Part shown: positions 32,283-57,281 of the stretch, in pieces
How positions within the stretch are numbered: position 1 is the stretch's first letter
Layout: each line of letters starts with the position of its first letter
Assembly: GCA_965238005.1 (NCBI GenBank)
Contig: OZ250165.1
Coordinates: 2,752,001-2,816,000, forward strand
Length of the DNA: 64,000 bases
Direction of reading: 5' to 3'
Origin: Longimicrobiales bacterium
GTDB taxonomy: Bacteria > Gemmatimonadota > Gemmatimonadetes > Longimicrobiales > Gaopeijiaceae
Program-made: the position numbers and the translations under genes
The notes under the pieces: model-generated
Databases searched by the model: none
Seen by the model: the letters and a program-made list of their open reading frames with translations, nothing else
Told to the model about the DNA's origin: nothing

Positions 32283-33485
32283 TCAGCGGCTGGGACCGGC
32301 CTCCGGGTCTCGACGCTCGGTGGCCAGATACCCGGCCCACTCGGCCATCAGGACGCGCCTGCGCTCGAACAGGTCGGAACGCGCGTAGGCTGCCTCCACC
32401 TTGTTGCGGACCACGTGCGCCAACGCCGCCTCCATGACCGCATGGGGGGTGTCCGTGCATTCGGCCGCCCAGTCCCTGAAGCTCGACCTGAAGCCGTGCG
32501 GCACGGCCGCGATGCCGAGTCGTCGAAGCAGCGTGGGGAGTGTGCCGCCGGAAAACACGCGGCCCTCCGGCGACGGGAAGACCAGACCGCCGCCGCCGAG
32601 CGGCCGCGCCTCGCTCAGGATCTCCATGGCGCGCCCGGAAAGCGGCACCCTGTGGGGGCGCTGGGCCTTCATGCGTTCACCGGGAACCGTCCACTCTCGA
32701 GCCTCCAGATCGATTTCATCCCAGTGCGCCGAGCGAACCTCTCCCGAGCGGGCCGCCGTCAGCACCATGAACTCGAAGGCGAGTTTCGTGGCCGGGTACG
32801 CGTTCGACTTCCGCACCGTTTCCATCGCGCCCGCGACCTTCGAGTGAGGCAACGCGCGCATGTGCTGGATTACGACGTGCTGTCGGCCGAGTGCTTGATC
32901 GAGCACATCGCTGGCGGGGTTGTCCGGCCGAAGCCCCATCGCCACCGCCCACTTCATCACCGCCCCGATGCGCTGGCGCACCAGCCGGGCGGTCGCGTGC
33001 TTGTCGTGCCAGATCGGTGTCAGAACCGCCAGCACGTCGGCTGTCGTTATCTCGCCGACCGGTTGATGGCCGAGCTGCGGGAACGCATAGACGCGCAGGC
33101 TGGTGACCCAGGCCTTCGCATGCTTGGCGCTGCGCCAGCCCGGCCGCTGCTGTTCCAGAACACGGGCGGCCGCCTCGGCGAACGTGGGCATGTCCCGGAC
33201 CTTGTGCCGCTCGGTACGCGGATCGCCGCCCGAGCGCGCGATCTTGCGGTTCATGAATGCCTTCTCTCGCGCCTCGGCCAGCGATACCAGCCGGTAGCCC
33301 CCGAGCCCGAGCGTGCGGTTTCGATCGTGGATCCGCAGACGCTGCTCCCATCGGCGCGCGCCTGATCGGTCCACGCGCAGATAGAGGCCATTCCCGTCGC
33401 AATAGTATCCGGGCTTGGCACTGCGCACGAAGGCCGCGCTGAGTGCGTTGTGCGGGTGTCTCCCTCGGTGTTTGGGCAAATCCAT
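32283..33485 (-). CDS. P4-like tyrosine integrase (element B)
   Basis: DGNGLYL, TAARSGE, HGFRSSFRDW, LAH, AAYARSD. Confidence 0.95.
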   Translation of the reverse strand: MDLPKHRGRHPHNALSAAFVRSAKPGYYCDGNGLYLRVDRSGARRWEQRLRIHDRNRTLGLGGYRLVSLAEAREKAFMNRKIARSGGDPRTERHKVRDMPTFAEAAARVLEQQRPGWRSAKHAKAWVTSLRVYAFPQLGHQPVGEITTADVLAVLTPIWHDKHATARLVRQRIGAVMKWAVAMGLRPDNPASDVLDQALGRQHVVIQHMRALPHSKVAGAMETVRKSNAYPATKLAFEFMVLTAARSGEVRSAHWDEIDLEAREWTVPGERMKAQRPHRVPLSGRAMEILSEARPLGGGGLVFPSPEGRVFSGGTLPTLLRRLGIAAVPHGFRSSFRDWAAECTDTPHAVMEAALAHVVRNKVEAAYARSDLFERRRVLMAEWAGYLATERRDPEAGPSR

Positions 33486-33643
33486 TTCCTATATCCCGTA
33501 TAGAATATCGTATGTCATGTACGGGAATATCGTGGACTTGCAGAGACAGCGCAACTGGGAGTGACCTATATAACCTACTGTGGTATCTGTAGTTAGATAG
33601 TCTTATGAGACACAGATGGATTGTATTGGAATCTATGTGCAGG

Positions 33644-34047
33644 AGACGTGGCGGAAGAAGAACGCCGCGCTGATCATGGCCACGCAGTCCGCGGTGGACG
33701 TGACGGCCACGCCGGGCGCTGCGGCGCTCCTCGAGTCGATCCCGACCAAGCTGTTCCTCGCGAACCCGGAGCTCCCCGACGCGGTCGGCGCGCTGTTCCG
33801 GCTGAGCGAGTCGGAACTCGCGCAGGTCCGGGGCCTGATCCCCAAACGCGAGCTCTATCTGCGCCGCCCCGACGGGGCGGCGGTGCTCCGGCTCGAGGTC
33901 GATCCGGAGAGCTACTGGCTCTACACCTCGTCCGCATTGGACGCCGAGGAGCGCGCCCGGGCCGTCGAGCGTCACGGGCTCGCCCGGGCCCTCGAGGTGC
34001 TCGCGAGCCGAGACGATCCCACCCCCACCCCCAACGCAAGGAGCTGA
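33644..34047 (+). pseudogene. virB4: VirB4 C-terminal part
   Basis: TWRKKNAALIMATQS, TKLFLANP; continues EAAKTWR of the middle part. Confidence 0.9.
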
Positions 34048-34053
34048 TACGCC

Positions 34054-34917
34054 ATGCGACCACCAATGACACCCATCGTTCTAACCGCCCTTCTCTTGGC
34101 TGCCCTCCCCGCCGGGGCTACCGCCCAGCAGGAGGACGACCAAGCGTTCCTCCGGGTGCCGGTCCCGGAGGAGGGGGAGGATCGGATCCATCGGCTCCGC
34201 ACCCAGGTCCGTCACACGACGGTGATCGTGCTCCCCGCCGATGAGAACATCCTGGATTTCGTGGTCGGCGACTCGGAGTACTGGCACCTGACCGGCGCGG
34301 CGAACGTCGCGTTCCTGAAGCCTCTGCGGCCGGACGCGGCGACGAATATCGCGCTCGTATGCGAGTCGGGGCGGATCTACTCGTTCCTGGTGGCCGAGCA
34401 CAGCGACGGGCCGCCTCATCTAGTCGTTCGCGTCGAGTCCGGAGCAGAGGCGGCGCGGCTCTCCGGAGGCACGGGCCGTCCCGCGTTCGTCGCACGGAGC
34501 GAGGTCGCGGCCTATCAGCAGATGGCCGCCGAGGCGGCCGAGGCGGCTCGCAGCGCCCGGGAAGCAGCCGAGGCCGGCATCCTGGAGGCCCGGTCGCAGG
34601 CTGAGTCGGCGATCGAGGAGTTCCGTGCCGGCTATCCGGAGCGCCTCGCCTTCGAGTACCGGCTCGACGGGGACGCGGCCGACCGGCCGTTCCTGGTCGA
34701 AGCGATGTGGCACGACGGGCAGTTCACCTACCTCCGGTCCCACGCCCAGGAGTCGCCGGCCCTCTATGAGCTCCGGGACGGCGAGCCGGCGCTCGTGGCT
34801 TACGATCTGACGGATGAGGGCCTCTACATCGCCCGCCACGTACTGGGAGACGGGTGGCTGCAGATCGGCGACAAGCGGGCCGCTTGGCGGTTCACGCCCA
34901 GGGACGGGCTCCGATGA
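34054..34917 (+). CDS. virB9: VirB9/TrbG
   Basis: Signal peptide, VGD..W, FLKP, WHDGQFTY; operon context. Confidence 0.85.
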   Translation: MRPPMTPIVLTALLLAALPAGATAQQEDDQAFLRVPVPEEGEDRIHRLRTQVRHTTVIVLPADENILDFVVGDSEYWHLTGAANVAFLKPLRPDAATNIALVCESGRIYSFLVAEHSDGPPHLVVRVESGAEAARLSGGTGRPAFVARSEVAAYQQMAAEAAEAARSAREAAEAGILEARSQAESAIEEFRAGYPERLAFEYRLDGDAADRPFLVEAMWHDGQFTYLRSHAQESPALYELRDGEPALVAYDLTDEGLYIARHVLGDGWLQIGDKRAAWRFTPRDGLR

Positions 34918-36191
34918 GCCGCTGGAAGCAGTGGGTCCGGCCCCCGGAAGGCGCGCTGCCCGGGGGCATCGTGACGAAGGCGGGCGTGGTGTTGATCGCC
35001 GTGCTCGTCGGCGGACTCCTCTTCTCGTGGGCGATGACGGGTCCCCAGGAAGCCGACACTCTCGTAGCCCTGCCCGAGGCGCAGGCGGTCGACGACGGGA
35101 TGGGGAGGTCGCTCCAAGACCGCATTCGGCAAGAGGCCGAGCGGCAGACTCTGGAGGCCGCCGCCCGGGCGCGCGCCGAGCTCGAGCGCCGGCAGGCTGC
35201 GGCCGCCGAAGAGATGGCTCGGCTCCAGACCGAGTCGGAGACGCCGAACACCGCAGCCTTGATCCCAGGCGTGAGCGCGGCCGAGTCGGAGCTTAGGGAG
35301 GCGCTTCGGCTGGAGGAGCTGGAGCGGAGGGCCCGCTCGCTCCGCGCCCTGCCGGTGGCCCACACGTACAGGACTCCGGACGCCGCGACCCGGCCGTCCG
35401 AACCCGACGGAGGTGCGGCCGACGCGGATGTGGCCCTCCTCGAGAACACGGTCCGAGCGGCTCTCGCCTCCTTCGAGCAGTCGCTCGGGGCGCTCGAGGG
35501 CGAGCTAGAAGCCGAAGAGCGGCTGCTCGCGGCTCTGGGGGCGACTGCACCCGCTCCCAACCCGGGAGCTGCCGCACCGCCAAGCTCTCCTCGCCCCCCC
35601 GGCACGGCTGAGCCCGGCCGGAGCGTCCGGCCTGCCGACCTGCCGGGTTGGGAGCGGATCTACGAGGGCTCGTTCCTCGAAGGGGTGCTGGTCACTCAGC
35701 TCACGGGCGATTTCCCGGGACCGGTGCTCGCCATGGTTTCGGTCCCGTTCTATTCGGCCGACCGCCAGCGGATCCTGATCCCGCGCGGCGCGCGTGTCGT
35801 CGGCACGGCCCGGGCCGTTCAGGACCCGGACCAGAGCCGGCTCGCCGTCGCGTTTCACCGGTTGCTGCTCCCCGACGGCAGCTGGATCGACCTCGAGTTC
35901 ACCGGCCTCAACCAAGCGGGCGAGGGGGCCCTTCAGGACGAGGTCGATCGCCACTACTTCAGCACGTTCGCTGCGGCCGGAGCCGTGGGCGTCGTGAGCG
36001 GACTCGCCCTGGCCGGCGGTTCGCCGTTCGGTCTCAGGGCGGGCGTCGGCCAGGGACTCGGCCAGAGCGCGACCTCGGTTCTCGACCGGTTCCTGAACCG
36101 GCTACCCACGATCACGATCCGCGCGGGCCATCGCCTGCGCATCTGGTTCACCTCCGATGTCCTGGTCCCCAGGGCCGGGACACGGCAATGA
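34914..36191 (+). CDS. virB10: VirB10/TrbI
   Basis: N-terminal TM, ILIPRGARVVG, DEVDRHY, PTITIRAG. Confidence 0.9.
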   Translation: MSRWKQWVRPPEGALPGGIVTKAGVVLIAVLVGGLLFSWAMTGPQEADTLVALPEAQAVDDGMGRSLQDRIRQEAERQTLEAAARARAELERRQAAAAEEMARLQTESETPNTAALIPGVSAAESELREALRLEELERRARSLRALPVAHTYRTPDAATRPSEPDGGAADADVALLENTVRAALASFEQSLGALEGELEAEERLLAALGATAPAPNPGAAAPPSSPRPPGTAEPGRSVRPADLPGWERIYEGSFLEGVLVTQLTGDFPGPVLAMVSVPFYSADRQRILIPRGARVVGTARAVQDPDQSRLAVAFHRLLLPDGSWIDLEFTGLNQAGEGALQDEVDRHYFSTFAAAGAVGVVSGLALAGGSPFGLRAGVGQGLGQSATSVLDRFLNRLPTITIRAGHRLRIWFTSDVLVPRAGTRQ

Positions 36192-36208
36192 CAAACAAGG
36201 AGCTCATC

Positions 36209-37117
36209 ATGCGTCACCGCAGCCTCACCACCGTCCTCCTCGTCTCCATCCTGATGCTCGCGAGCGCTGGGCCGGCCAACGCCCTCTTCGACATCGGCGG
36301 CGTGATCCAGCGAGCCCAGATGATCGTGAACCAGGCGACCCAGATCGCTAACCAGATCCGCCAGATGCGGACGATGACCCGCCAGCTCACCGAGCTCGAG
36401 GAGCAGCTCGACTACATGAAGGACGTCGCGCGGGGCGAGGTGGACGCGCTGATCGAACCGTTCGCCGAGCTGTCGGCCGGATCCATCGGCCTCGTCGGCG
36501 ACGGCCTCGACTGGGGCTCCGACTTCACCGGCGCAGCCGGCGAGCTGGTCGAAGCGGTGCGTGGCATGGGGAGCGGCAGCTCGTTCACCGACGTCTGGCG
36601 GAGCGCCCAAGGGGTGGCCGACCAGGTGAGCGAGGCGGACATCTTGGGGCTCTACCGTAACCGCCCGGCTGAGGTGTCGTCGCGCGCGGTTGAGGACTAC
36701 CGCCAGGCTCGTGAGGCCGCCGACCGCCAGCGCGTGCTCGACTACGCGATGATGGACGCCGCGGCCTCGCTCGCCTCGACCGTCGAGAGCGCGCAGGGCT
36801 CGTTCGACGACCTGACCGCGAACGGCAATCTGTCCAACACGGCACTCCAGCAGGCGCAGGTGGCTGCCGCGCTGACGCAGGGCCGGATCAACGCCGCCGT
36901 GGCGCAGGTGCTCGCCTATCAGGCGGTCGAGCAGGCGAACCGGATGCAGCAGGCCGAGATCGACCGGCTCGAGCGGCTCGCCGAGTGGAGGGACGCGCGG
37001 CTCCGTACGAACGCGATGGCCGATGCGATGCGGGCGGCCGCGTTCCAGAACCGCGACCGGCTCCGGGAAGGGCTCCTCTTCAAGATCCCTTCGTTCTACA
37101 TGGGCGGCCAAGTTTAG
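36209..37117 (+). CDS. VirB5/TrbJ-like protein
   Basis: Signal peptide, QIANQI.Q, helical Q/A-rich; precedes virB6. Confidence 0.65.
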   Translation: MRHRSLTTVLLVSILMLASAGPANALFDIGGVIQRAQMIVNQATQIANQIRQMRTMTRQLTELEEQLDYMKDVARGEVDALIEPFAELSAGSIGLVGDGLDWGSDFTGAAGELVEAVRGMGSGSSFTDVWRSAQGVADQVSEADILGLYRNRPAEVSSRAVEDYRQAREAADRQRVLDYAMMDAAASLASTVESAQGSFDDLTANGNLSNTALQQAQVAAALTQGRINAAVAQVLAYQAVEQANRMQQAEIDRLERLAEWRDARLRTNAMADAMRAAAFQNRDRLREGLLFKIPSFYMGGQV

Positions 37118-37135
37118 GCCCCGGGAGCGACTGTC

Positions 37136-38146
37136 ATGCAACTCCTGCCACCGCAGTCGATCGATCCGAACGTCCCGGCCCAGATCCCGGCGGATCAACT
37201 CCAGGACTTCAAGGGGTTCCTGGACATCGTGCTCGATACCGTGGCCGGCGGCGCCGCGCCCGACGTGCTGACGCTCGGCCACCAGCTGTGGGGCGGTCTC
37301 GCGGCGGTGGTCGTCGCGTGGAGCGGGCTCAAGATCGCGTACAGCGGCACGCTCGAACCGTGGGCGCTCGTGCGTGTCGTGCTCGGGATCGCGATCCCCC
37401 GGACGCTGCTCCATTACTACAGCGTCCCGATCCCGGGCGTGGGCTTCACGTTTCCGGCCATGGTGGCGGCCGGAGGGATCTGGCTCCAGAACCTGTTCAT
37501 CTCCGATGTCGTGTCGGTTGGCTACACGGAGATGACCGCGCTGGTCCAGGCGTTCGCCGCACGGCTCGGAGCGGCATGGTCCGGCGGGAGCCTGATGACC
37601 CTCATGACCGAGGGCGTGAGCGTGTTCTTCTCGTCCCTCGTCGCGCTGATGATGGGCGCGCCGCTCGTGCTCGGCCTGGTCGCGCTCTTCTGCCTGACCT
37701 ACGCGCAGGTGATCTGGGCGCAGGTGGCGCTCGCGATCGTGATCCTCTTGGGCCCCGTGTTCATCCCCTGGCTGCTGTTCGAGCCGCTCGCGTTCCTGTT
37801 CTGGGGATGGTTCCGCACGCTCATGGTCTACACGCTCTACGGCGTCGTGGCCGGAGCCATCCTCCGCGTGTTCATGGGCGTGGGCATGGGCTACGTCACG
37901 ACCTATACCGGCGCCTTGATGGGCACCGGCTCCTCCGACCCGGCCGAGCTAGGGCTCTGGGTCGTCGTCCTGCTCCCGCTCGTCGTCTCCGGCCTGATGG
38001 CCGGCATGAAGGTGGGCGAGCTCGCCGCGATGCTCGTCTCCGGCTCCGGGTCCGTCGGATCGGGGATGATGGCGGTCATGGCCCGCGGCGGCGGACGCCT
38101 CAGCGCTGCCGCGAACCCGGCCCGCCCCCCAATCCCCGGAGGCTGA
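37136..38146 (+). CDS. virB6: VirB6/TrbL
   Basis: Polytopic membrane protein, LGPVFIPWLLF...FWGW. Confidence 0.85.
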   Translation: MQLLPPQSIDPNVPAQIPADQLQDFKGFLDIVLDTVAGGAAPDVLTLGHQLWGGLAAVVVAWSGLKIAYSGTLEPWALVRVVLGIAIPRTLLHYYSVPIPGVGFTFPAMVAAGGIWLQNLFISDVVSVGYTEMTALVQAFAARLGAAWSGGSLMTLMTEGVSVFFSSLVALMMGAPLVLGLVALFCLTYAQVIWAQVALAIVILLGPVFIPWLLFEPLAFLFWGWFRTLMVYTLYGVVAGAILRVFMGVGMGYVTTYTGALMGTGSSDPAELGLWVVVLLPLVVSGLMAGMKVGELAAMLVSGSGSVGSGMMAVMARGGGRLSAAANPARPPIPGG

Positions 38147-38151
38147 AGGAG

Positions 38152-38427
38152 ATGTCCATGAACCGAGAACACGATGCCGGCCGCGAGTACGCGGAAATCT
38201 GGGGCGAGACCGTCGAGGCCAACCGGAAGCTCCGGACGCTGGCGACCATCCTCGCCACCGCGTGCCTCGCGCTCGGCGTGCTCCTGCTCCGGGTCGCGAC
38301 CGTCGAGCCGCCCCGGCCGATCGTCGTGCGGGTCGACGAGGTCGGCCGCGCCGAGGCCGTGGCCTACGAGGCCGCAACGGCGCAGGCGGATCCGCTCGAT
38401 CCCACGACCAAGTAGTTCCTGAACCGG
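38152..38427 (+). pseudogene. virB8: VirB8 N-terminal part
   Basis: TM helix, PIVVRVDEVG, ends PTTK*FLNR at att core. Confidence 0.85.
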
Positions 38428-40168: not shown

Positions 40169-40173
40169 TCGAG

Positions 40174-42642: not shown

Positions 42643-42715
42643 CCGTCAGGTAGACATCAATTTGGAGCTCAAGCGCCTGCGGACCAACCGTGATGTGGCG
42701 CGGGCCAGACTGTGA
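42643..42715 (+). pseudogene. C-terminal tail of DUF4391-like gene cut by IS
   Basis: RQVDINLELKRL...* directly upstream of mod. Confidence 0.45.
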
Positions 42716-42729
42716 ATCGAGAAGACCGT

Positions 42730-44682
42730 ATGAGTATGAAGAAGATCATTCTCAACGACCCAGAAACCCGCTCGGCCGATGTTGTAGCCGAGAATCTTGA
42801 ACATCTGAAAGTGCTGTTTCCCGAAGCGTTCACCGAAGGGAAAGTCGACTTCGAAGTGCTCCGGCAACTTCTGGGCGACGTGGTCGAGAAGCGCGAGGAG
42901 AAGTACGGCCTCAACTGGCATGGCAAGCGGCAGGCCCGGCAGCTCGCGCTGACACCCAGTGCTGGAACACTGCGGCCATGCCCGGAAGACAGCGTGGATT
43001 GGGACACCACCCAGAACCTCATGATCGAGGGCGACAACCTCGAAGTCCTCAAGCTCCTCCAGAAGTCCTACGCTGGGAAGGTCAAGCTCATCTACATCGA
43101 CCCGCCCTACAACACCGGCAAGGACTTCGTCTATCCCGACAACTTCCAGGACAACATCAAAAACTACCTCGAACTCACCGGCCAGACCGGCGAGGGTGGC
43201 AAGAAACTCTCCTCCAACACCGAAGCCTCCGGCCGCTTCCATACCGACTGGCTGAACATGATGTATCCGCGTCTGAAGCTCGCGCGAAACATGCTAAGAG
43301 ACGATGGAGTCCTCTTCGTCAGCATTGACGAGCGAGAAGTCGCCAACCTGCGAGCGGTCCTCGACGAGCTCTTTGGGGCGGAAAACGGTGTGTGCGAATT
43401 CGTGTGGCAGGCCAAGAAGGGAGGGGGTAGTGACAACCGTGGCGTTGTGTCGGAGCACGAGTACGTACTTTGCTATTGCCGGAACATTGATGCGGAGCCT
43501 CTCGGGCAGCTCACAATCGATGCGGAGCCGCTGGATCAGACGGACGCCAATGGACCCTATCGCCGTGGCCGCGAATTGAACAAGTGGGGTGCGAATTCTC
43601 TACGCAAGGACCGCCCTACGATGTTTTTTCCGATTCCTGGATTGAACGGCGTCGATGTGTTCCCTATCAGGAATGACGGCAAGGAGGGATGCTGGCGCTG
43701 GGGCAAGAAGAAGATCCTCCAAGCTGTGGCGGATGGCAACGTGGAGTTTGTTGCCAGAGAGAATGAGACCTATATCGCGTATGAGAAAATTAGATCCTCG
43801 GATGCCCGCAGGAAGCCATTTCGAACGTTGCTCACTGATTCTGGGCAAACGGCCGATGGCACAAAGGTGATCAAAGATCTCTTCGATGGCGAACGGGTCT
43901 TCGACTTCTCGAAGCCACTAGACTTGGTATCGGCATTGTTGACTATTGGAATGCCGCTATCAGATGACGATGACATAGACGCTGCACCGCTTGTGATGGA
44001 CTTCTTCGCCGGGTCTGGGACCTCTGGTCACTCGGCGATGCTGCGTTCTGCCGCTGACGGTGACTCCTCCTGCCGATTCGTTCTTGTTCAGCTACCCGAG
44101 ACACTGGACACCGACGATAAGGACCAGAACGTTGCTGCAAAATACTGCGACACTATCGGCAGGCCCCGCACGATCGCCGAACTGACCAAAGAGCGCCTGC
44201 GCCTGGCCGGGAAGAAGATTCGGGAGGAAAACCCAATGTTCGCGGGTGACCTCGGCTTCCGCGTGTTCAAACTTGCCAGCAGCAACATCCGGGCGTGGGA
44301 GCCGGACGGCGAGAAGCTTGCCGAAACCCTCGAAGCCTCTATTGAGCACCTCAAGACCGACCGCACGGAGCAGGACATCCTCTTCGAGCTGCTCCTCAAG
44401 CTCGGCCTCGATCTCACCGTGCCCATCGTTCAGCGCACCATTGCCGGTAAGGCCATCCACAGCATCGGCGGCGGCGTTCTCCTCGTCTGCCTTGCCGACT
44501 CCATCACGCAGGTTGAGGCCGAGCCCCTGGCTCTTGGCGTAGTCGCGTGGCACAAAGAGCAAGCCCCAGCTGGCGAGAGCACCGTGGTCTTCCGCGACAG
44601 CGCGTTCGCCGATGACGTGGCCAAGACCAACCTAGCGGCCATTCTCTACCAACACGGCCTCGAAAAGGTCAGCAGCCTGTAA
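42730..44682 (+). CDS. mod: Type III R-M methyltransferase
   Basis: IEGDNLEVLK, YIDPPYNTG, WLNMMYPRL, DFFAGSGT. Confidence 0.95.
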   Translation: MSMKKIILNDPETRSADVVAENLEHLKVLFPEAFTEGKVDFEVLRQLLGDVVEKREEKYGLNWHGKRQARQLALTPSAGTLRPCPEDSVDWDTTQNLMIEGDNLEVLKLLQKSYAGKVKLIYIDPPYNTGKDFVYPDNFQDNIKNYLELTGQTGEGGKKLSSNTEASGRFHTDWLNMMYPRLKLARNMLRDDGVLFVSIDEREVANLRAVLDELFGAENGVCEFVWQAKKGGGSDNRGVVSEHEYVLCYCRNIDAEPLGQLTIDAEPLDQTDANGPYRRGRELNKWGANSLRKDRPTMFFPIPGLNGVDVFPIRNDGKEGCWRWGKKKILQAVADGNVEFVARENETYIAYEKIRSSDARRKPFRTLLTDSGQTADGTKVIKDLFDGERVFDFSKPLDLVSALLTIGMPLSDDDDIDAAPLVMDFFAGSGTSGHSAMLRSAADGDSSCRFVLVQLPETLDTDDKDQNVAAKYCDTIGRPRTIAELTKERLRLAGKKIREENPMFAGDLGFRVFKLASSNIRAWEPDGEKLAETLEASIEHLKTDRTEQDILFELLLKLGLDLTVPIVQRTIAGKAIHSIGGGVLLVCLADSITQVEAEPLALGVVAWHKEQAPAGESTVVFRDSAFADDVAKTNLAAILYQHGLEKVSSL

Positions 44683-44691
44683 GCGAAAGCC

Positions 44692-47600
44692 ATGAAACTT
44701 CACTTAGAGCCCAACCTCGATTACCAGCTTCAGGCCATCGAGGCCGTCTGTGGCCTTTTCCACGGACAGGAAACCTGCCGAACCGAATTCACCGTCACCC
44801 AAGACACTGCCACTGGGCAAATGTCGCTGCTCGAAAACGACCTTGGGATCGGCAATCGGCTGACTCTTCTCGACGAAGAACTCCTCGCTAATCTGCACGC
44901 CATCCAACTCCGCCACGGCCTTGCCCCATCAGTCTCGCTCGCGTCCGGGGATTTCACCGTCGAGATGGAGACCGGTACCGGCAAGACCTATGTATATCTG
45001 CGGACCGTCTTTGAGTTGAACAAGCGTTACGGCTTCACCAAGTTCGTCATCGTCGTGCCCTCGGTGGCGATCAAGGAAGGCGTCTATCACACCATCGATA
45101 CCGCGGCGGAGCACCTCAAGGGGCTCTACGCGGGCGCGCCCTTCGACTTCTTCATCTACGACTCGGCGAAGCTAGGCCAGGTGCGCAACTTTGCGACCAG
45201 CCCGCAGATTCAGATCATGGTGATGACGGTGGGCTCGATCAACAAGTTCGGCGACGAGCAGCAGGCGCAGACGGAGGAAGCGGACGAGGCCGCCCGACGT
45301 GAGAAATCGAAGAACGTGATGTATCGCCCCAGCGAAAAGACGGGCGGGGAGAAGCCTATCGATCTGATCCGGGCGACGCGCCCCCTCCTCATCGTGGACG
45401 AGCCGCAGAGCGTGGAAGGCGGGCTCAACGGCAAGGGCAAGAAGGCCATGGAGCGGATGAATCCGCTGTGCAACCTGCGCTATTCCGCGACGCCGAAAGG
45501 GGCGCACCACATGGTGTTCAAGCTCGATGCGGTGGATGCCTACGAGCGGAAACTGGTGAAGCAGATTGAGGTAGCGGCAGCATCCGTGGAGGGCGGGCAC
45601 AACAAGGCGTATGTGCGGTTCATCGCGCCGGTATCCCGTGGCAAGAGCGTCGTGGGCGCCAGGGTGGAGCTGGACATCGCCAAGGCACACGGCGTGGACC
45701 GACAGACGGTCACCGTGGCACCGCTCGACAAGCTCGAAGAAGTGACCAAGCGGGAGATTTACCGGGACCACATCATCGGGCAGGACATCCGGGATGCCAA
45801 GGACGACAAGTTCATGGAACTCCGCTATCCCGGCGGCGAGGAATACCTCCGTCCCGGCCAAGCCTACGGCGACGTGGACGCGCTGGCTGTGCAGCGCCAG
45901 ATGATCCACCGCACCATCAAGGAGCACCTGGACAAGGAGAAGCGTCTCCGCCCGCAGGGCATCAAGGTGCTCAGCCTGTTTTTTATCGATGCCGTCGGGA
46001 AATACCGGCAGTACGACGCCGACGGCAACTCGGTGAAGGGCGACTACGCCCGCATCTTCGAGGAGGAATACCGTCGGCTCGCCAAGCATCCCGACTACCA
46101 GACCCTCTTCAAGGAAGTGGACCTGACCACCGCCGCCGAGGACGTGCACAGCGGCTATTTCTCCATCGATAAGAAAAAGGTCGGCACCAAGACGGTGGAG
46201 GTGTTCAAGGACACCAAGGGGACCACCCAGGCCGACGATGACACCTATGGCCTTATCATGCGGGACAAGGAGAAGCTGCTGAGCTTCGAAACCCCGCTGA
46301 AGTTCATCTTTTCCCACTCCGCCCTACGCGAAGGCTGGGACAACCCGAATGTCTTTCAAATCTGCGCATTGCGCGAGATGAGTTCAGAGCAGCAGCGACG
46401 CCAGACCATCGGACGCGGCCTGCGTCTCTGCGTCAATCAGAACGGCGAACGCCTGCGCGGCTTCGAGATCAACACGCTGACTGTGATTGCGACCGAGAGC
46501 TACGAACAGTTCGCCGAGAAACTCCAGAAGGAGATCGAAGAAGAAACGGGTATTCGCTTCGGCATCGTGGAGGCGCACCAATTCGCCGGGGTCACCGCCT
46601 CTGGAGCCGATGGCCAGCCTGCGCCGCTGGGCTTCAAGCAGTCGAAGGTGCTGTGGGAGCATTTGAAAACTGCGGGTCTCGTGAACGCCCAAGGCAAGGT
46701 GCAGGACGCGCTGCGGCAACAACTGAAGGACGGCACGCTGACCCTGCCAGAGCCGTTCGTTGCCCAACTCCCGCAGGTGAAAGAGATCCTCCGCAAACTG
46801 GCAGGACGCTTGGAGATCAAGAACGCCGACGAGCGCAAGCAGGTGAAGACCCGTCAGGCCGTCTTGCAGGGCGAGGACTTCAAGGCGCTGTGGGAGCGCA
46901 TCAAGTACAAGACCACGTACCGCGTCCAGTTCGACAACGAGGCCTTGCTCGCGACCTGTATCCAGGCGATCAAAGTCCCGAACTTCGCTATCACCAAGAC
47001 GCGCCTGCAATGGCGCAAGGCCGATCTCGCCATCGGGCGCTCCGGGGTAGACGCGAAGGCGACTGTTACCTCTGCCCCAGTGACGCTCGATGAGGGCGAC
47101 ATCGAGTTGCCCGACATCCTGACAGATCTCCAGGACAAGACCCAGCTCACGCGGCGTAGCATTCACCGCATCCTCGTGGACAGCGGCCGGCTCGATGACT
47201 TCAAACGCAACCCGCAGCAGTTCATCGATCTCGCGGCAGAGGTCATCAACCGTTCGAAGCGTCTCGCGCTCGTGGACGGCATTAAGTACCAGCGCATCGG
47301 CGTCGAGGATTACTACGCCCAGCAACTGTTCGAGACTGAAGAGCTAGTCGGCTACCTCAAATCCATGATCGACGCCAATAAATCGGTTCACGAGCAGGTG
47401 ATCTACCAGTCCGGCACCGAACGCACCTTTGCCGAGCAGCTGGAGATGAACGAAGCCATCAAGGTGTATGCCAAGCTCCCCGGTTGGTTCCGGGTGCCCA
47501 CGCCCCTCGGCCCCTACAACCCCGACTGGGCCGTGCTGGTGGAAAAAGACGGAGCCGAGCGCCTTTACTTCGTGGTCGAAACGAAGAGCGGACTCTTCAC

Positions 47601-47733
47601 GGATGATCTGCGTGACAAAGAGGAAGCGAAAATCGAGTGCGGAAGAGCGCACTTCAAAGCTCTGGCGGTGCGCGAGAGGCCGGCGAGATACACCGTCGCG
47701 CGCACGGTGGATGACGTGTTGTCTTCGACGTGA
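44692..47733 (+). CDS. res: Type III restriction endonuclease
   Basis: EMETGTGKT, DEPQ, SAT, LREGWDNPN, QTIGRGLR, YNPDW..VETK. Confidence 0.95.
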   Translation: MKLHLEPNLDYQLQAIEAVCGLFHGQETCRTEFTVTQDTATGQMSLLENDLGIGNRLTLLDEELLANLHAIQLRHGLAPSVSLASGDFTVEMETGTGKTYVYLRTVFELNKRYGFTKFVIVVPSVAIKEGVYHTIDTAAEHLKGLYAGAPFDFFIYDSAKLGQVRNFATSPQIQIMVMTVGSINKFGDEQQAQTEEADEAARREKSKNVMYRPSEKTGGEKPIDLIRATRPLLIVDEPQSVEGGLNGKGKKAMERMNPLCNLRYSATPKGAHHMVFKLDAVDAYERKLVKQIEVAAASVEGGHNKAYVRFIAPVSRGKSVVGARVELDIAKAHGVDRQTVTVAPLDKLEEVTKREIYRDHIIGQDIRDAKDDKFMELRYPGGEEYLRPGQAYGDVDALAVQRQMIHRTIKEHLDKEKRLRPQGIKVLSLFFIDAVGKYRQYDADGNSVKGDYARIFEEEYRRLAKHPDYQTLFKEVDLTTAAEDVHSGYFSIDKKKVGTKTVEVFKDTKGTTQADDDTYGLIMRDKEKLLSFETPLKFIFSHSALREGWDNPNVFQICALREMSSEQQRRQTIGRGLRLCVNQNGERLRGFEINTLTVIATESYEQFAEKLQKEIEEETGIRFGIVEAHQFAGVTASGADGQPAPLGFKQSKVLWEHLKTAGLVNAQGKVQDALRQQLKDGTLTLPEPFVAQLPQVKEILRKLAGRLEIKNADERKQVKTRQAVLQGEDFKALWERIKYKTTYRVQFDNEALLATCIQAIKVPNFAITKTRLQWRKADLAIGRSGVDAKATVTSAPVTLDEGDIELPDILTDLQDKTQLTRRSIHRILVDSGRLDDFKRNPQQFIDLAAEVINRSKRLALVDGIKYQRIGVEDYYAQQLFETEELVGYLKSMIDANKSVHEQVIYQSGTERTFAEQLEMNEAIKVYAKLPGWFRVPTPLGPYNPDWAVLVEKDGAERLYFVVETKSGLFTDDLRDKEEAKIECGRAHFKALAVRERPARYTVARTVDDVLSST

Positions 47734-50817: not shown

Positions 50818-51030
50818 CGGCGCGCCAAGGCCGCGGCAGCCGAGGTCGAGCACGAGCGCACCCGGCAGGTCGCGCGCATCGGCAACAACCTGAACCAGCT
50901 CGCGCGCTGGGCGAACACGCACGCCTCGGCGGTCGAGGCCGTCGCGGTGATCGCTAACCTCGTGTCGTTCGAGCGTTCGCTGCTCGCTGCCATGGCCCGC
51001 TTCGACGGAGATGGCGGCGATGCACATTAA
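50818..51030 (+). pseudogene. mobC: MobC/MbeC lacking N-terminus
   Basis: ERTRQVARIGNNLNQLARWAN; in-frame stop upstream; overlaps relaxase start. Confidence 0.8.
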
Positions 51031-52540
51031 GTGCCTCCGGCGCGGTAGGGGCTCGGCCCGGGCGGCGGTCGACTATCTCGTCGGCGAGCGGGACGCCGAG
51101 GGGCACAGGCGCGAGGGCGTCGAAGTCCTGCGCGGGAACCCGGACATGGTGGCCACCGTCGCCGACTCGCTGGAGTTCGAGCGCAAGTACACGTCGGTCG
51201 TGATCGCGTGGGCGCCGGACGACCAGCCAACCGACGCGCAGATCGGAGCCGTCCTCGACGAGTTCGAGCAGACGGCGTGGGCGGGATTGGAGCCGGACCG
51301 CTACGCGTGGACAGCCGTCCTGCACCGCGAGCGCGGGGGCGGCGTCCACGTGCACGTCCTCGCCGCGCAGTGCGACCTGGAGACGGGGCGCAGCCTGAAC
51401 ATCGCGCCGCCCGGCTGGCAGAGGACCTTCGACCCGCTACGCGACGCCTTCAACCACGAGCACGGCTGGAGCCGCCCGGACGACCCGGCGCGGGCCAGGG
51501 CGCAGCAGCCGGGCCACCTGGCCTACATCGAGGCGTCGAAGCTGCGGGCCGGGCTGGAACACGAAGCCGACCCGCGCGGATTGATCCGCGACTACCTGGT
51601 GCAGCGCGTCGAGCACGGCGCGGTCCGAAGCCGCGCCGACGTCGTCTCCGCCCTGGAGGCAGTCGGCCTTGAAGTGCCGCGCCAGGGCAAGAACTACGTC
51701 ACCGCCCGCGATCCGGACAGCGGAAAGCGGTGGCGGCTGAAGGGAGCGCTGTATGAGCATGACTTCCAACCCGAACGACTTGACTTCCCGGCTGGGCCGC
51801 CAGCTGGAGGCCGACCGCCGGCAGATCGAGGAGACGGCCACGCGCGAGCTCGAGCGGCTCGGCGAGAGCTTGAGCGCCGCCGCAAGCGGCGCGCTGCGTT
51901 CCATCGAGGCCGATACGGCGGCGGCGACCTCACGGGTGAGCGTCCTGCTGAGGCGCGCGTGGCTCCGGTCCCTGGTGATCGGCCTGAGCCTTTTTCTCGG
52001 TATCAGCGGCGGCAGCTGGGCGACGATGCACTGGTTGTCGACGAGCATCGAACGCCGGATCGAGACCTTGGCGACGGTGAACGTGCAAATAGAGCAGGCG
52101 CGGGAGACCCTGGCCGAGATCGAGGAGACGACCTGGGGCGTGACGCTGCGGGAGATCGGCGGGGAGCAGTTCGTGGTGCTGCCGACTGGCACGCTGGACT
52201 ACCCGCCTTGGACCGTGGGCGGGCGGCCTGCGGTGAAGCTGTCGAGAGAGTGAAGGAGCTATATGACCGAGCTAGAACGGCAGTTGACGAAGGCCTTGGA
52301 GAGGTTGTCCGCGCAGTACGAGATGGAACAGCAGCGGCACTCAGAGCAGGTCGAAGCCTTGGAGCAGCGGGTCGAGCAGCAAGCCGCGCAGAGCGAAACC
52401 TTGCGGCAGCAGGTCGCACAGCTGACCGGGCAAGTGACGCACTTGGCCCGGGACTACAGGACGCTCGCCGCGACGTTGCGCGGGCGCTGGAGCTGATGCG
52501 CCAGCGGAGCCGAGAGCGCGATCATGGTCCGAGCCGCTAG
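51020..52540 (+). CDS. mobA: MOBP-family relaxase, MbeA-like
   Basis: AVDYL, VLRGNP, YTSVVIAW, H...HVH, DLETGRSL, GWSRPDDP. Confidence 0.9.
   Translation: MHIKCLRRGRGSARAAVDYLVGERDAEGHRREGVEVLRGNPDMVATVADSLEFERKYTSVVIAWAPDDQPTDAQIGAVLDEFEQTAWAGLEPDRYAWTAVLHRERGGGVHVHVLAAQCDLETGRSLNIAPPGWQRTFDPLRDAFNHEHGWSRPDDPARARAQQPGHLAYIEASKLRAGLEHEADPRGLIRDYLVQRVEHGAVRSRADVVSALEAVGLEVPRQGKNYVTARDPDSGKRWRLKGALYEHDFQPERLDFPAGPPAGGRPPADRGDGHARARAARRELERRRKRRAAFHRGRYGGGDLTGERPAEARVAPVPGDRPEPFSRYQRRQLGDDALVVDEHRTPDRDLGDGERANRAGAGDPGRDRGDDLGRDAAGDRRGAVRGAADWHAGLPALDRGRAACGEAVERVKELYDRARTAVDEGLGEVVRAVRDGTAAALRAGRSLGAAGRAASRAERNLAAAGRTADRASDALGPGLQDARRDVARALELMRQRSRERDHGPSR
51753..52253 (+). CDS. MbeB-like protein nested in relaxase gene
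   Basis: Alternate frame, TM segment, TWGV motif; ColE1-like position. Confidence 0.75.
   Translation: MSMTSNPNDLTSRLGRQLEADRRQIEETATRELERLGESLSAAASGALRSIEADTAAATSRVSVLLRRAWLRSLVIGLSLFLGISGGSWATMHWLSTSIERRIETLATVNVQIEQARETLAEIEETTWGVTLREIGGEQFVVLPTGTLDYPPWTVGGRPAVKLSRE
52263..52496 (+). CDS. MbeD/MobD-like protein nested in relaxase gene
   Basis: MTELERQL..ALE.L coiled coil; AAGGAG RBS. Confidence 0.8.
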   Translation: MTELERQLTKALERLSAQYEMEQQRHSEQVEALEQRVEQQAAQSETLRQQVAQLTGQVTHLARDYRTLAATLRGRWS

Positions 52541-52968: not shown

Positions 52969-53796
52969 CTAGAATGGGACATCGTCATCCTCTTCATCAT
53001 CCTCTGGAGCTGAGTAGGAAAGGTCTCTAAACCTATCCAACCATTCGTCCAATTCCTTATTCATCCCTCGGTAGCGTCGGGAGATAAATGCGATTGGTTG
53101 ATGCATCTCTTTCAGATAGTCTAGAGTGTGTTGATAGCCTGCCTCCTTCTTGACCTGACTATCATGCACTTCGACGTAACTACTAAGCAGATCTTGGATT
53201 ACCGATTGGGGTAGAGTTTGACGTATCGCAGGTTGTGACGCGAGTCTTCTGTTAAGCTGAAGAATCTCCTCCAACAATTCTCTGTCCGACCGGATCGGCT
53301 CGTCCGGCTCGCCTGCCTCACCGAGGATCTGATTGATCTTTGTTTCAAGATCTGGCCACCATTTTCCGAACACCGTGTCGAGCGTCTTAGACGGCAGTTT
53401 GTTATCGCCGCTTCCGTTGTTGATGACACCGAGCAGCCGGTGCATATCACTCTTCTCAAATTCCGTCGTTTGAAACTGTTTTAACGGACCCGCAAGATCG
53501 GTGTTGTTGATTCCGAACAAGACCGGGCAAACATGAGATTTGTCCAAGCTCTTAGACAGGGCGCCAGCCTCGAACAGAATCCAATCACTGTGAATGTTTT
53601 CCCGTGTTATGCAAAGGATGCCGATCTGCGATTTTGCGAGTTCTGTCGAAATATCGGTCGACCAACGTGTTCCTTTCTCTAGATCTGACGGAGTGAAGTA
53701 CGGCCTAACGAGTTGAAGCACGCCCGGAATCCAATCTCGCAGAGCTTCGCCAACCTTCTTGCTGTACTGCCCCGACCAGCTGATAAACACTTTCAT
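52969..53796 (-). CDS. TIR-domain protein
   Basis: MKVFISWSG, KGTRW, WILFEAGAL. Confidence 0.88.
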   Translation of the reverse strand: MKVFISWSGQYSKKVGEALRDWIPGVLQLVRPYFTPSDLEKGTRWSTDISTELAKSQIGILCITRENIHSDWILFEAGALSKSLDKSHVCPVLFGINNTDLAGPLKQFQTTEFEKSDMHRLLGVINNGSGDNKLPSKTLDTVFGKWWPDLETKINQILGEAGEPDEPIRSDRELLEEILQLNRRLASQPAIRQTLPQSVIQDLLSSYVEVHDSQVKKEAGYQHTLDYLKEMHQPIAFISRRYRGMNKELDEWLDRFRDLSYSAPEDDEEDDDVPF

Positions 53797-53883: not shown

Positions 53884-53947
53884 ACTGCACTAGCTACAAT
53901 CGCATGAAGAGCCACGCCCGTGTGAATCGCTACCGGGGTAATCTGTG
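53884..53947 (+). repeat. Direct repeat copy 2
   Basis: 53891-53947 identical to 4235-4291. Confidence 0.9.
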
Positions 53948-54213: not shown

Positions 54214-54663
54214 CTAAGTGTGACGTTGAAGTCCGCGAGAGTACTCCCGATGCTTGTCGTGGTAGATGTAGCGCATCGTGACGCCTCTGTCGAGAAGTTC
54301 GGCCAGGGTGCAGGCGGTGCGCATGACCTCTGGCTTCCAGTCAGCGAGTACGGCACGGCGGAAAGTGGCGATGTCAAGCTCCGCGACCGAGACGTTCACA
54401 AGCCGGTAGTTGTAGGCCAGCACGTCGCCGAAGCCGTAGACGTTCATCATCTCCGTGTCGCGGTTCAGCTGATAGGGCGTGCTCTTGTTGATCTCGTTCG
54501 CAACTGTGGTCACCACTTCCGACGTAATTGGCACGCGGGAAAAGAAGGTCTGTTCGCCTACCACGTTACCTACCACGCGGCCGATGACACCGCCTACAGA
54601 GGAGAAGGCCAGGATGAGCAGGAGAGCGAAGACTCCACCAGCGATGGAGAGGCTCTTCCGCAT
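54214..54663 (-). CDS. Hypothetical membrane-anchored protein
   Basis: N-terminal hydrophobic helix, protein-like composition. Confidence 0.55.
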   Translation of the reverse strand: MRKSLSIAGGVFALLLILAFSSVGGVIGRVVGNVVGEQTFFSRVPITSEVVTTVANEINKSTPYQLNRDTEMMNVYGFGDVLAYNYRLVNVSVAELDIATFRRAVLADWKPEVMRTACTLAELLDRGVTMRYIYHDKHREYSRGLQRHT

Positions 54664-55029
54664 CAGCTACCTTCCATCCGCTGCCGTGACCTCGTCTGCC
54701 GTGGAGCGGAGCGCCGCAGCAATCTGCATCCGGGCGATCCTCTCCTCAACGTCGAGGAGGTGTCGTTGGTTCTCCACCGTTGCACTCCAGGGGCACGAGG
54801 GAGGTGAGACCCAACCAAGGTGCTCGAAGCGGGTCAGGTCGATGAGTCGGCCAAAGCGGTATTTCGCGTCTTTTGCGCTCGACGTCTGCATGCGACTCCC
54901 CTGGCTGGTGGCAACTCAAATCTTGGCCAATTGGCCGACCGGCGCAAACCGGATTACACCCACGCAGAGCCCGCCGCCACACCTTCTAGGCTTGGGTCGT
55001 GAGGCGGACCAGGGTGGGGGAGGTTGCCT

Positions 55030-55122
55030 GGGAGCGACCCCCCATCTCGGCATGCCTCGATCGGCATCGGGGAGGATGGCGATGGGCATCCCCATCGTCC
55101 CCTCCGCCGCGGGGTCGCTCCC
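55030..55122. repeat. Structured element, subtype X
   Basis: GGGAGCGACCCC/GGGGTCGCTCCC IR with two hairpins. Confidence 0.8.
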
Positions 55123-55239
55123 AGCCAGCAGTCCCTCCGGGAAGGGGGTTCGGGGGGCTCGCCCCCCGCCCGCGCACTCCGCCGGAGCGCGGGTCCTCAG
55201 GGGGGTCGAAGGGGGGGCGGAGCCACCCCTCGCCAGATG

Positions 55240-55270
55240 CCCAATGTTTTACATTGGGTAGGCTGGCTTA
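55240..55270 (+). other. ColE1-type oriT-like site
   Basis: CCCAATGT/ACATTGGG IR + TAGG + CTGGCTTA. Confidence 0.72.
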
Positions 55271-55315
55271 AGCACCTTAGTCTCCGCCCAAGGTGCCGCG
55301 ACGGTGGGCTGCAAC

Positions 55316-56503
55316 CTATGGCTTGCGACTGTCGCCGGTGAGGTACGCAGCCCACTGCTCCATCAGGACGCGCCTGCGCTCGAACAGGTCCGAACGCGCA
55401 TAGGCAGCTTCCACCTTGTTGCGAACCGCATGCGCCAACGCGGCCTCGGCGACCTCACGCGGTGCGTTGGAACACTCGCCGCACCAGTCCCTGAAGCTCG
55501 AACGAAAGCCGTGCGGCACGGCCGCGATACCCAGGTCTCGAAGCAGCGTGGGGAGTCTGCTGCCGGGAAATGCGCGGCCCTCCGGCGACGGGAAAACGAG
55601 ACCGCTGCCGCCGCCGAGCGTCCGCGCCTCGCTCAGTATCTCCATGGCGCGCCCGGACAGCGGCACCCTGTGGGGGCGATGGGCTTTCGTGCGTTCGGCG
55701 GGAACCGTCCACTCCCGAGCCTCCAGGTCGATTTCATCCCAGTGCGCCAAGCGAACCTCTCCCGAGCGGGCCGCCGTCAACACCAGGAACTCGAAGGCGA
55801 GTTTCGTGGTCGGGTAAGCGTGCGACCTCCGCACCGTTTCCATCGCGCCCGCGACCTTCGAGTGAGGCAACGCGCGCATGTGCCGGACTACGGCTTGCTG
55901 TCGGCCGAGCGCTTGACCGAGCACGTCGCTGGCGGGGTTGTCCGGCCGAAGCCCCATCGCCACCGCCCACTTCATCACCGCCCCGATGCGCTGGCGCACC
56001 CGCCGGGCAGTCACCTGCTTGTCGTGCCAGATCGGTGTCAGCACCGCCAGAACGTCGGCTGTCGTTATCTCGCCAACCGGTCGATGGCCGAGCTGTGGGA
56101 ACGCATAGACGCGCAGGCTGGAGACCCAGTCCTTCGCATGCCTGGGGCTGCGCCAGCCCGGCCGCAGCTGTTCCAGAACACGGGCGGCCGCCTCGGCGAA
56201 CGTGGGCATGTCCCGGACCTTGTGCCGCTCGGTACGCGGATCGCCGCCCGAGCGCGCGATCTTGCGGTTCATGAATGCCTTCTCGCGCGCCTCGGCCAGC
56301 GATACCAGCTGGTAGCCCCCGAGCCCCAGCGTGCGGTTTCGACCCTGGATCCGTAGACGCTGCTCCCATCGGCGCGCGCCCGATCGGTCCACGCGCAGAT
56401 AGAGGCCGTTCCCATCGCAGTAGTATCCGGGCTTCGCACTGCGCACGAAGGCCGCGCTGAGTGCGTTATGCGGGCGCCTGCCTCGATGTTTGGGTAAATC
56501 CAT
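55316..56503 (-). CDS. P4-like tyrosine integrase (element A)
   Basis: Close paralog of 32283-33485; catalytic motifs intact. Confidence 0.95.
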   Translation of the reverse strand: MDLPKHRGRRPHNALSAAFVRSAKPGYYCDGNGLYLRVDRSGARRWEQRLRIQGRNRTLGLGGYQLVSLAEAREKAFMNRKIARSGGDPRTERHKVRDMPTFAEAAARVLEQLRPGWRSPRHAKDWVSSLRVYAFPQLGHRPVGEITTADVLAVLTPIWHDKQVTARRVRQRIGAVMKWAVAMGLRPDNPASDVLGQALGRQQAVVRHMRALPHSKVAGAMETVRRSHAYPTTKLAFEFLVLTAARSGEVRLAHWDEIDLEAREWTVPAERTKAHRPHRVPLSGRAMEILSEARTLGGGSGLVFPSPEGRAFPGSRLPTLLRDLGIAAVPHGFRSSFRDWCGECSNAPREVAEAALAHAVRNKVEAAYARSDLFERRRVLMEQWAAYLTGDSRKP

Positions 56504-56662
56504 TTCCTAGGCCCCGTATAAAGTATCGTATGTTATGTACGGGAACATAGCGGACGTACAGGGACCCTGCAACCCGGAGTGTACTCCATAACTAACTGCA
56601 ATCATGATAGTTAGAGAATCATACTGGACACTCATGGAGTGTATCGGAATCCATGCGCAGCA

Positions 56663-57281
56663 GACGGTTGATCAGCTCGGAGAGAAGCCGCGAGGCTTCG
56701 GCGGGCTCGAGCATCTCGATCGGCGTGTGCTCCTCCACGAGCGCACGGCCCGCGTCCACCGTCGAGCGAAAGCGGGCGGCGGCCGCCTCGATCTCGGAAC
56801 CGAGGTAGGTCGGCGCGCCCCCTCGGCGGCGCTTCCACCACTGCATGAGCCGGGAGGCGCTTCCTGTTCTGGGCCCGTCTGCGACCGTGCGTAGACGGGG
56901 ATCGTGCGACCAGACCAGATAGGCTTCGAGCTGCTGGACGCGGCCCGACAGAAACGCACTCCGCTTCCGCTGCGACACCGCTACGATGCCGGAGCCCTCG
57001 TCGTCCGCGGCCTCGGGCACACTCGGCCGACGGAGCAGATAGAAGTAGAGGCGCGTGTCGGCGTCCAAACCCGAGAGCAACCGCTGCCAGCGGCCCAGCA
57101 CGCGGTCGATCTGTTCGGGCGAACGCCCATCCACCACCGCGGGCTCCAGCCGCCCGGCCGCGATCAGCTCGCCCGAGCGGGTCAGGCAGGTACGGCCGTC
57201 CTCGAGCCAGCCCCAGTAGGGCAGCTCCTCGGCCAACGAGCCGGCCGCCTCGTGGTCCCGGAGCTCCGCGGAGATCCTCAC
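56663..57281 (-). pseudogene. virB4: VirB4 N-terminal part
   Basis: Follows virB3; LPYWGW; ends ELINR at 16-bp core shared with 27104-27119. Confidence 0.88.

Follow-up and report, generated by a model that had tools for sequence, protein, structure and literature searches.

How does an integrase that inserts its element at one site give rise to a close relative that inserts at another? The question is raised by a 64-kb stretch of DNA, hereafter the window (G000:C1:2752001-2816000), which lies inside the 4.84-Mb genome of a member of the Longimicrobiales (Gemmatimonadota) and holds two sibling elements, A and B, whose tyrosine integrase genes, intA and intB, accompany insertions at two different positions of one virB4 gene. 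The closest relatives that bear an integrase of this type are metagenome-assembled genomes of the Longimicrobiales. On the reading that we favor, and to which we give a probability of roughly 55%, A and B are homologous modules of the lambda/P4 type in which the target would be set chiefly by the identity of the attP and attB overlaps and tuned by changes in the core-binding residues of the integrase.

Two sibling elements in one virB4 gene

Pfam and NCBIfam scans identified the transfer genes of a conjugative element in the window, with virB4 in three pieces (Table 1). In silico removal of A and B, combined with flipping of the N-terminal piece, yields a single virB4 frame of 2448 nt (815 codons) in which the only stop is the terminal one. 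An uninterrupted virB4 at genome 765119..762672 aligns without gaps to the rebuilt gene across the full 816 positions (97.5% identity), and another virB4, at genome 822599..825037, is 81% identical to it. In the uninterrupted paralogue, which belongs to the same genome, the target sites of A and B are both empty and the cores are the same. Given the core repeats, the exact restoration of the frame and the empty-site paralogue, the insertions are precise and site-specific rather than chance repeats, and A and B are evidently two separate integrative elements that entered the ATPase gene virB4 within a single integrative conjugative element (ICE).

The two integrases are identical at 345 of 395 residues (87%), and their genes share 89.2% DNA identity over 1329 bp, with the match extending past the start codons into the attachment-site arms. 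The far ends of the elements (26859-27086 against 28806-28576) are 82% alike. Both proteins carry the Pfam domains Arm-DNA-bind_3, Phage_int_M and Phage_integrase, the three-domain organization of lambda/P4-type integrases, and no variation is seen among 25 family members at R246, K273, H330, R333, W339 and Y367; we take these to be the catalytic R-K-H-R-(H/W)-Y set from their position in the Pfam domain. An earlier interpretation of the bare letters (the sequence-only reading) had proposed closely similar integrases and element ends at different virB4 sites, and these proposals are borne out, each element having its own core repeats. Its further claim of opposite orientation holds only relative to the reading direction of virB4: the direction of intA runs counter to that of virB4, from the C-side junction, and that of intB follows it, from the N-side junction, whereas within the window both genes lie on the minus strand as a direct repeat.

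Arms, core and overlap of the attachment sites

The motif ATCGTATGTNAT, with one mismatch allowed, occurs four times in the window, once in each arm of A and B, where 0.23 occurrences are expected, and CCCGTATA occurs five times (0.46 expected), four of these within the arms. Measured from motif start to overlap center, the first motif lies at 143 bp in the P arm and 92 bp in the P' arm, and the second at 155 bp and 104 bp, respectively, with the same values in A and B. The arm-binding domains of IntA and IntB show four differences in the first 100 residues. A and B agree in their arms and in arm geometry, and it is the core that has moved.

Each attP core of A and B matches its own virB4 target exactly. 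The blocks of identity span 10 bp in A (AGACGTGGCG), 16 bp in the B copy of this window (GACGGTTGATCAGCTC), 11 bp in the B-type relatives L009 and L012 (GACGGTTGATC) and 7 bp at a third, virB11-type site (TGAGCGA). The block is limited to 11 bp in these two relatives because their attP reads GGTTGATC and then runs into TACTG, as does that of relative L007 (complete or half elements). When aligned, the blocks of the three site types intersect in exactly seven positions, so the overlap is most likely 7 bp long and would read CGTGGCG in A, CGGTTGA in B and TGAGCGA in the virB11 type. These overlaps are framed by GA on the left and mostly by TC on the right, the exception being attB(A), whose right side is GAAG. 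The half-sites of attB(A), attB(B) and the virB11 site differ strongly. With arm-type sites flanking a core and an overlap of about 7 bp, the predicted attP has the layout of the lambda/P4 type.

The sequence-only reading had described a variable overlap of about 6 bp between fixed flanks. A variable core is indeed seen, but the length is most likely 7 bp, and the right flank TCAG is not fixed, as the relatives with TACTG demonstrate. The two attP labels had also been exchanged, since the integrase with the patch SAKHAKAWVT (32283-33485) sits with GTGGCG and the one with SPRHAKDWVS sits with GGTTGA.

Target sites among relatives and paralogues

Seventeen integrases of at least 82% identity were classed by their junction flanks. 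Eight occupy the same virB4 site as B (L002, L006, L008, L009, L010, L011, L012 and L016), and VirB3 was confirmed upstream in three of the eight. Four more (L003, L005, L007 and L014) have a B-like core beside other flanks, the cores being imperfect with one to two mismatches. Two relatives (L001 and L004) lie at a virB11 site and one (L013) at another location, and no junction was obtained from the remaining two, L015 having an insertion sequence upstream and L065 being truncated at its 5' end. The third integrase group (84-85% identical) has another 7-bp core and a virB11-like gene as its target. In relative L001 and in a 6.2-kb sibling element of the same genome as the window (genome 2727927-2734170), whose integrase is 84.6% identical to IntA, a virB11-like ATPase gene is split at a NTGHGGSLTTVHA motif.

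About 22 integrase paralogues were found in the same genome by tblastn, for example at G000:C1 708719-876226 and 2732822-2835696. Three of them abut a C-terminal fragment of a coupling protein (TraG-D_C) beside a virB11-like gene, and one splits the His-box motif of a virB11-like gene. Around more distant relatives (in Vicinamibacterales and other groups), the neighbors are for the most part chromosomal genes, transposases or other integrases.

Two other loci were noted as well. A decayed remnant of a B-type P arm, lacking an integrase (L082, G000:C1:2722851-2722958) is joined to another virB4 N-terminal piece at the same codon, with GGTTGG in place of GGTTGA in its core. A near-identical twin of a virB11-site integrase (L080/L081/L085, G000:C1:510936-512310 and 660468-660732) abuts an MmeI-type restriction-modification gene, and the virB11-type far end that matches it is found inverted at a distance of 148 kb; another rearrangement, mediated by an integrase or by repeats, may account for this arrangement.

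A probable mosaic origin of IntA

In sliding windows of DNA identity, intA at nt 600-840 is ~93% identical to intB and 72-82% identical to the virB11-type integrase gene, whereas at nt 900-1140 it is 91-97% identical to the virB11-type gene and 76-86% identical to intB. Trees give the same picture. Over residues 1-285 (20 rows), all 13 B-type integrases together form the sister group of IntA with support of 100/98, and for residues 296-385 (17 rows, with L014, L015 and L016 dropped as truncated or frameshifted) it groups with the virB11-site integrases, also with support of 100/98. By windows and trees alike, IntA appears to be a recombinant that joins a virB4-site integrase (residue 1 to about 285) to a virB11-site integrase (about 296-385), and the differences between IntA and IntB at 340-363 would therefore be inherited from another lineage. 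Compared with 20 close siblings, IntA alone has H10, H53, D54, R65, Q113, A125, Q141, A164, L168, H203, P295, a gap of one residue following 298, GGT at 313-315 and R322.

Variable patches and their counterparts in lambda integrase

The protein patches listed in the sequence-only reading are present in IntA and IntB, and at the same positions the integrase at 3-752 shows yet other residues. The reported clustering of differences is also real, although much of the C-terminal cluster seems to stem from recombination and not from point changes. A phmmer search for a direct sequence match between IntA and lambda Int in the PDB returned only isolated P4-like arm and core-binding domains. The best matches of an AlphaFold2 model built for IntA (mean pLDDT 80.5) are full-length lambda Int on core DNA or a Holliday junction (1z1b, 1z1g and 5j0n; E down to 6e-11). 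In the model, residues 119-128 open helix 120-138, residues 163-168 open helix 163-182, and residues 311-314 make up the loop that leads into helix 315-322. A profile alignment of 25 family members to lambda Int by hhalign (probability 95.5%, 266 columns), which has 22% identity and may be off by one or two residues, places IntA 119-128 at lambda K93-S102 (K121/R121 at K95 and A125/D125 at N99), 162-168 at K136-L142 and 311-318 at L280-R287, with 312-315 at 281-284.

Lambda and HK022 Int are identical at 264 of 354 residues, and the differences in their alignment include N99D, S282P, G283K, R287K, E319R and H329R. The five determinants of specificity that distinguish the two, reportedly identified by Dorgai and Yagil in 1995, are said to be N99, S282, G283, R287 and E319. 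A literature search on S282P/G283K/R287K/E319R returned no relevant paper among its top results. According to the available text of PMC10863862, N99 and K95 of lambda Int touch bases and N99D/H329R are HK022-type specificity changes, and that of PMC6007267 attributes most of the difference in specificity between lambda and HK022 to five residues.

Among 89 homologues, mean entropy is 1.81 bits at 119-128 and 2.0 bits at 310-318, compared with 1.02 bits family-wide, and positions 313 and 314 rank 7th and 9th of 370. Residue 168 is R in 78 of the 89 and residue 125 is D in 57. At 313-315, the 12 B-type rows that retain these residues read G/H-S-R (L016 is frameshifted there), the three virB11-site integrases and int3 read D-T-N, L013 and L015 read G-S-T, and IntA reads G-G-T.

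How the target may have been changed

On our preferred reading, the requirement for identity between the attP and attB overlaps would be the chief determinant of the target; the polarity of each overlap sets the orientation of insertion in virB4. Fine tuning would be provided by the core-binding helix (119-128), the helix that begins at 163, and the catalytic-domain loop at 311-318. After the recombination, IntA would have gained D125A, V164A, R168L, GGT at 313-315, and R322, and these unique changes would contribute to recognition of the new site. The retargeting route of the sequence-only reading, a change of overlap plus core-binding residues, has much the same two halves. The first appears well supported by the exact match of core and target, the shared arm frame and the third core; the second is plausible by homology. 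The check that it proposed, a correlation of residues with cores across homologues, shows residues 313-315 to follow site type and residues 311-313 to vary within the B group.

Several observations weigh against the preferred reading. The B-type integrases beside four other flanks, with their imperfect cores, argue for tolerance toward half-sites. The B group has two versions of residues 311-313, FPG and SAH, at the same site, so variation in the patches is only partly tied to the target. Since IntA appears to be a mosaic, part of the patch differences between A and B would have been taken wholesale from another lineage. The mapping onto lambda Int is loose in register. The A specificity itself is known from one insertion, none of the 17 close relatives having an A-type site, and an exact IUPAC search of metagenome contigs for the A-type P-arm/core pattern, which divergent copies would escape, gave seven matches, none of which (0/7) had arm homology or an integrase. 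Finally, mv4 Int has been retargeted by a change of overlap alone, with a degenerate half-site consensus, in the portion of bioRxiv 10.1101/2023.11.06.565760 available.

On a rival reading, the overlap alone retargets. The integrases would then be interchangeable and read half-sites loosely, their differences would reflect drift or hitch-hiking with recombination, and attP would gain a new 7-bp overlap, for example in a cycle of integration and excision at a secondary site. The attP sites differ most clearly in the overlap, the half-sites of attB(A), attB(B) and the virB11 site are very unlike, the secondary sites of B-type integrases combine one to two mismatches with unrelated flanks, the C-terminal block of A/B differences seems to derive from recombination, and mv4 Int, as far as its available description goes, has a free choice of overlap and degenerate half-sites. 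We nevertheless consider the overlap-only route unlikely, if still a serious alternative. Residues 313-315 track the site type, with SR at 314-315 in 12/12 B-type rows, DTN in the virB11-site integrases and int3, and GGT in IntA; IntA carries rare substitutions at positions conserved in others (R168 in 78/89, D125 in 57/89); and the variable positions align with specificity positions of lambda. It is improbable that A is a one-off insertion of a promiscuous integrase at a secondary site, with no evolved A specificity. In favor of this are the single known A-type insertion, the unoccupied copy of its site in the intact virB4 paralogue of the same genome, and the right half-site GAAG of attB(A), which departs from the TC start of other sites. 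Against it, the same 10-bp block is found at both A junctions with the frame restored exactly, and the A arms (62-76% identical to others) and intA (about 15 unique residues) have diverged from all relatives, which argues for an independent history rather than a recent mis-integration.

The preferred reading, overlap identity tuned by core-binding changes, may also be set in a broader frame, which we offer tentatively and with less than even confidence. The Longimicrobiales would harbor a clade of P4-like integrases with tropism for conserved motifs in type IV secretion system (T4SS) genes, whose elements ride embedded in ICEs, rebuild the transfer genes on excision, and acquire new specificities by domain swap and overlap change. 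The T4SS-gene targets seen here comprise two sites in virB4, the His-box of a gene for a virB11-like ATPase and a gene for a coupling protein, together with a virB8-like gene struck by the more distant Int22 described below. A family-wide T4SS tropism was considered and rejected; because the flanks of distant relatives differ, transfer-gene tropism is claimed for the Longimicrobiales copies only.

Element B, element E22 and a probable inversion

The two core copies of B are inverted in the chromosome, so B is no simple insertion in its present state. Relative to an intact element at genome 758283-766419, the segments 56663-58587 and 14465-16358 share one orientation and 27104-38427 has the opposite one. 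A virB8-like gene of this conjugative element is also interrupted, by a third element, E22, and lies in pieces at 38143-38427 (+) and 15945-16352 (-). The 12-bp core of E22, TTCCTGAACCGG, is found at 38416-38427 (+) and inverted at 16341-16352 (-). The transfer genes of one conjugative element have been hit on three occasions by elements that carry an integrase.

The simplest account is that B recombined homologously with E22 at a 67-bp repeat, which probably inverted ~32.8 kb, in which case the earlier B would have measured ~14.8 kb. This route is preferred over a single inversion mediated by int22, which was set aside. At genome 1.0007 Mb, a related element runs unbroken across the 67-bp repeat, with the relaxase side at the left and the 18.1-kb side at the right. 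The mismatch in orientation between the N-terminal piece of virB4 and the stretch from the middle and C-terminal pieces through virB6 is likely due to this separate inversion. There is a good chance that B before the inversion comprised intB and the genes for a TIR protein, the relaxase, ArdC, a LuxR protein, a Calx-beta protein and the AlpA-type excisionase. Judged as an integrative mobilizable element (IME), B has a relaxase only if the inversion model holds, and its repeats at present stand inverted, while A has direct repeats and an integrase without a relaxase.

Pfam and PHROGs scans of A found no recognizable excisionase or relaxase, and the small open reading frames (ORFs) of A and B matched no family in PHROGs or Pfam, the exceptions being the fn3 protein, the TIR protein and the AlpA-type excisionase (26244-26543). 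Tandem repeats of 276 bp with 96-98% identity lie within the fn3/CARDB cargo gene of A (window 29461-30771). In public short-contig runs (n = 4), one contig skips 28541-33644 and one bridges 28551-33685 with different letters between. Both contigs are explained by intact virB4 paralogues and are therefore uninformative on excision.

Comparison with known systems

Like A and B, lambda and HK022 encode heterobivalent tyrosine integrases with arm, core-binding and catalytic domains, in which close proteins use different core sites and differ at positions that align with the patches (N99, S282, G283 and R287). Unlike lambda and HK022 (75% identical), the siblings here are closer, at 84-87%, and one appears to be a recombinant of two specificity lineages; their targets lie inside genes of another mobile element and not in chromosomal intergenic DNA.

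A second parallel is offered by helper-embedded phage-inducible chromosomal islands (PICIs), in which, in the available text of PMC10111431, the site groups of one integrase clade, 14 in all, fall in late genes of prophages, and attP has a motif at fixed distances around it. As described there, the clade is P4-like, its subclades follow the site groups, sites evolve repeatedly in genes of the helper element, the conserved motif stands at fixed spacing on both sides of the attP center, and alpA is nearby, all of which resembles the elements described here. The host here is instead a conjugative element, insertion has struck type IV secretion genes (virB4 at two sites, virB11-like and coupling-protein genes), the phylum is Gemmatimonadota, the cargo is unrelated to phage satellites, and the orientation of insertion is not always that of the target gene, intA being transcribed opposite to virB4. 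With a conjugative host and no replication or late zone of the PICI kind, the likeness is one of logic only.

Streptococcal IMEs disrupt the conserved ICE genes traG, maff2 and snf2, and excision is proposed to restore the gene at transfer in the portion of PMC5357655 available. They too are small integrase-bearing elements in ICE genes, and pre-inversion B would share their relaxase; element A, unlike them, is without one. Unlike A and B, most of them use serine integrases, and virB4 is not among the targets named in that portion of PMC5357655. The 7-bp overlap is shared with mv4 Int, for which the available text of bioRxiv 10.1101/2023.11.06.565760 describes mandatory attP-attB identity, free overlap composition and degenerate half-sites; mv4 Int is a single integrase studied experimentally, whereas the variants here are natural and the proteins differ too. 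A full-text literature search found no tyrosine-integrase element splitting virB4 among its top-ranked matches, a weak negative.

Features of the window and neighboring genes

The features are collected in Table 1. Beside the conjugative element, genes for MazG_C, a 5-hmdU DNA kinase (PF18723) and a thymidylate-kinase-like protein are clustered at 60181-63297; the cluster is of the kind used in phage DNA thymidine hypermodification. Behind the integrase at 3-752, the region 772-14369 is rich in defense genes (GmrSD, type I restriction-modification in which M and S are fused, a HEPN protein and a DUF5131/TcmP pair), and a type III restriction-modification system lies at 42712-47733.

Table 1. 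Positions of elements A, B and E22, their attachment sites and the surrounding genes in the 64-kb window.
Feature	Position	Strand	Remarks
Third paralogous integrase, 3' part	3-752	+	about 62% identical to IntA; other residues in the same patches
int22 of element E22	16535-17689	+	more distant integrase, 44% identical to IntA
67-bp repeat, copy 1	18037-18103	+	inverted relative to copy 2, 91% identical; inside B and E22
AlpA-type excisionase/regulator gene	26244-26543	+	adjoins far end of B
P' arm of B	26859-27103	-	motifs at 27022, 27010 (-); 92, 104 bp from overlap center
Far-end core copy of B	27104-27119	-	16-bp GACGGTTGATCAGCTC, reverse-complemented in chromosome
virB4 middle piece	27120-28551	+	468-aa VirB4 fragment frame 27155-28561; TrbE profile positions 268-668 of 815
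attL core copy of A	28542-28551	+	AGACGTGGCG; putative 7-bp overlap CGTGGCG at 28545-28551
Element A	28552-33643	.	~5.1 kb: P' arm, fn3/CARDB gene, small ORFs, intA, P arm
P' (far) arm of A	28552-28830	+	motifs ATCGTATGTGAT at 28640, CCCGTATA at 28652; 92, 104 bp from overlap center
fn3/CARDB repeat-protein gene	28923-31328	-	cargo of A
intA	32283-33485	-	400-aa tyrosine integrase; Arm-DNA-bind_3, Phage_int_M, Phage_integrase
P (integrase-side) arm of A	33486-33643	+	motifs at 33507, 33495; 143, 155 bp from overlap center
attR core copy of A	33644-33653	+	AGACGTGGCG; 10-bp direct repeat with attL copy
virB4 C-terminal piece	33654-34047	+	143-aa fragment frame 33616-34047; profile positions 665-778
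virB9, virB10, virB6-like genes	after virB4 C-terminal piece, to 38146	+	
67-bp repeat, copy 2	50846-50912	-	candidate switch point of inversion
MobA/VirD2-type relaxase gene	51011-52540	+	assigned to pre-inversion element B
TIR protein gene	52969-53796		
intB	55316-56503	-	395-aa tyrosine integrase; Arm-DNA-bind_3, Phage_int_M, Phage_integrase
P arm of B	56504-56662	+	motifs at 56525, 56513; 143, 155 bp from overlap center
Integrase-side core copy of B	56663-56678	+	GACGGTTGATCAGCTC; putative overlap CGGTTGA at 56665-56671
virB4 N-terminal piece	56663-57281	-	220-aa frame, downstream of alpA, virB2, virB3
alpA, virB2, virB3	57278-58400	-	Pfam/NCBIfam scans

Implications for integrase targeting

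Elements A and B illustrate well, in nature, a familiar route by which integrases switch target and not a new mechanism; the mechanism is textbook. Their value lies in forming a compact natural test set for integrase targeting, with at least three target specificities among integrases that are 84-89% identical and with arms and spacing conserved. One member of the set appears to be a clean recombinant of two lineages, and empty copies of both virB4 targets exist in the same genome, so that a few chimeras and exchanges of att sites could tell apart what the overlap and the core-binding residues each contribute. Should the tentative tropism for transfer genes be true, IntA would be a change of specificity caught in the act. 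The elements run parallel to the satellites in prophage late genes and to the IMEs in streptococcal ICEs, here in a phylum that has barely been studied.

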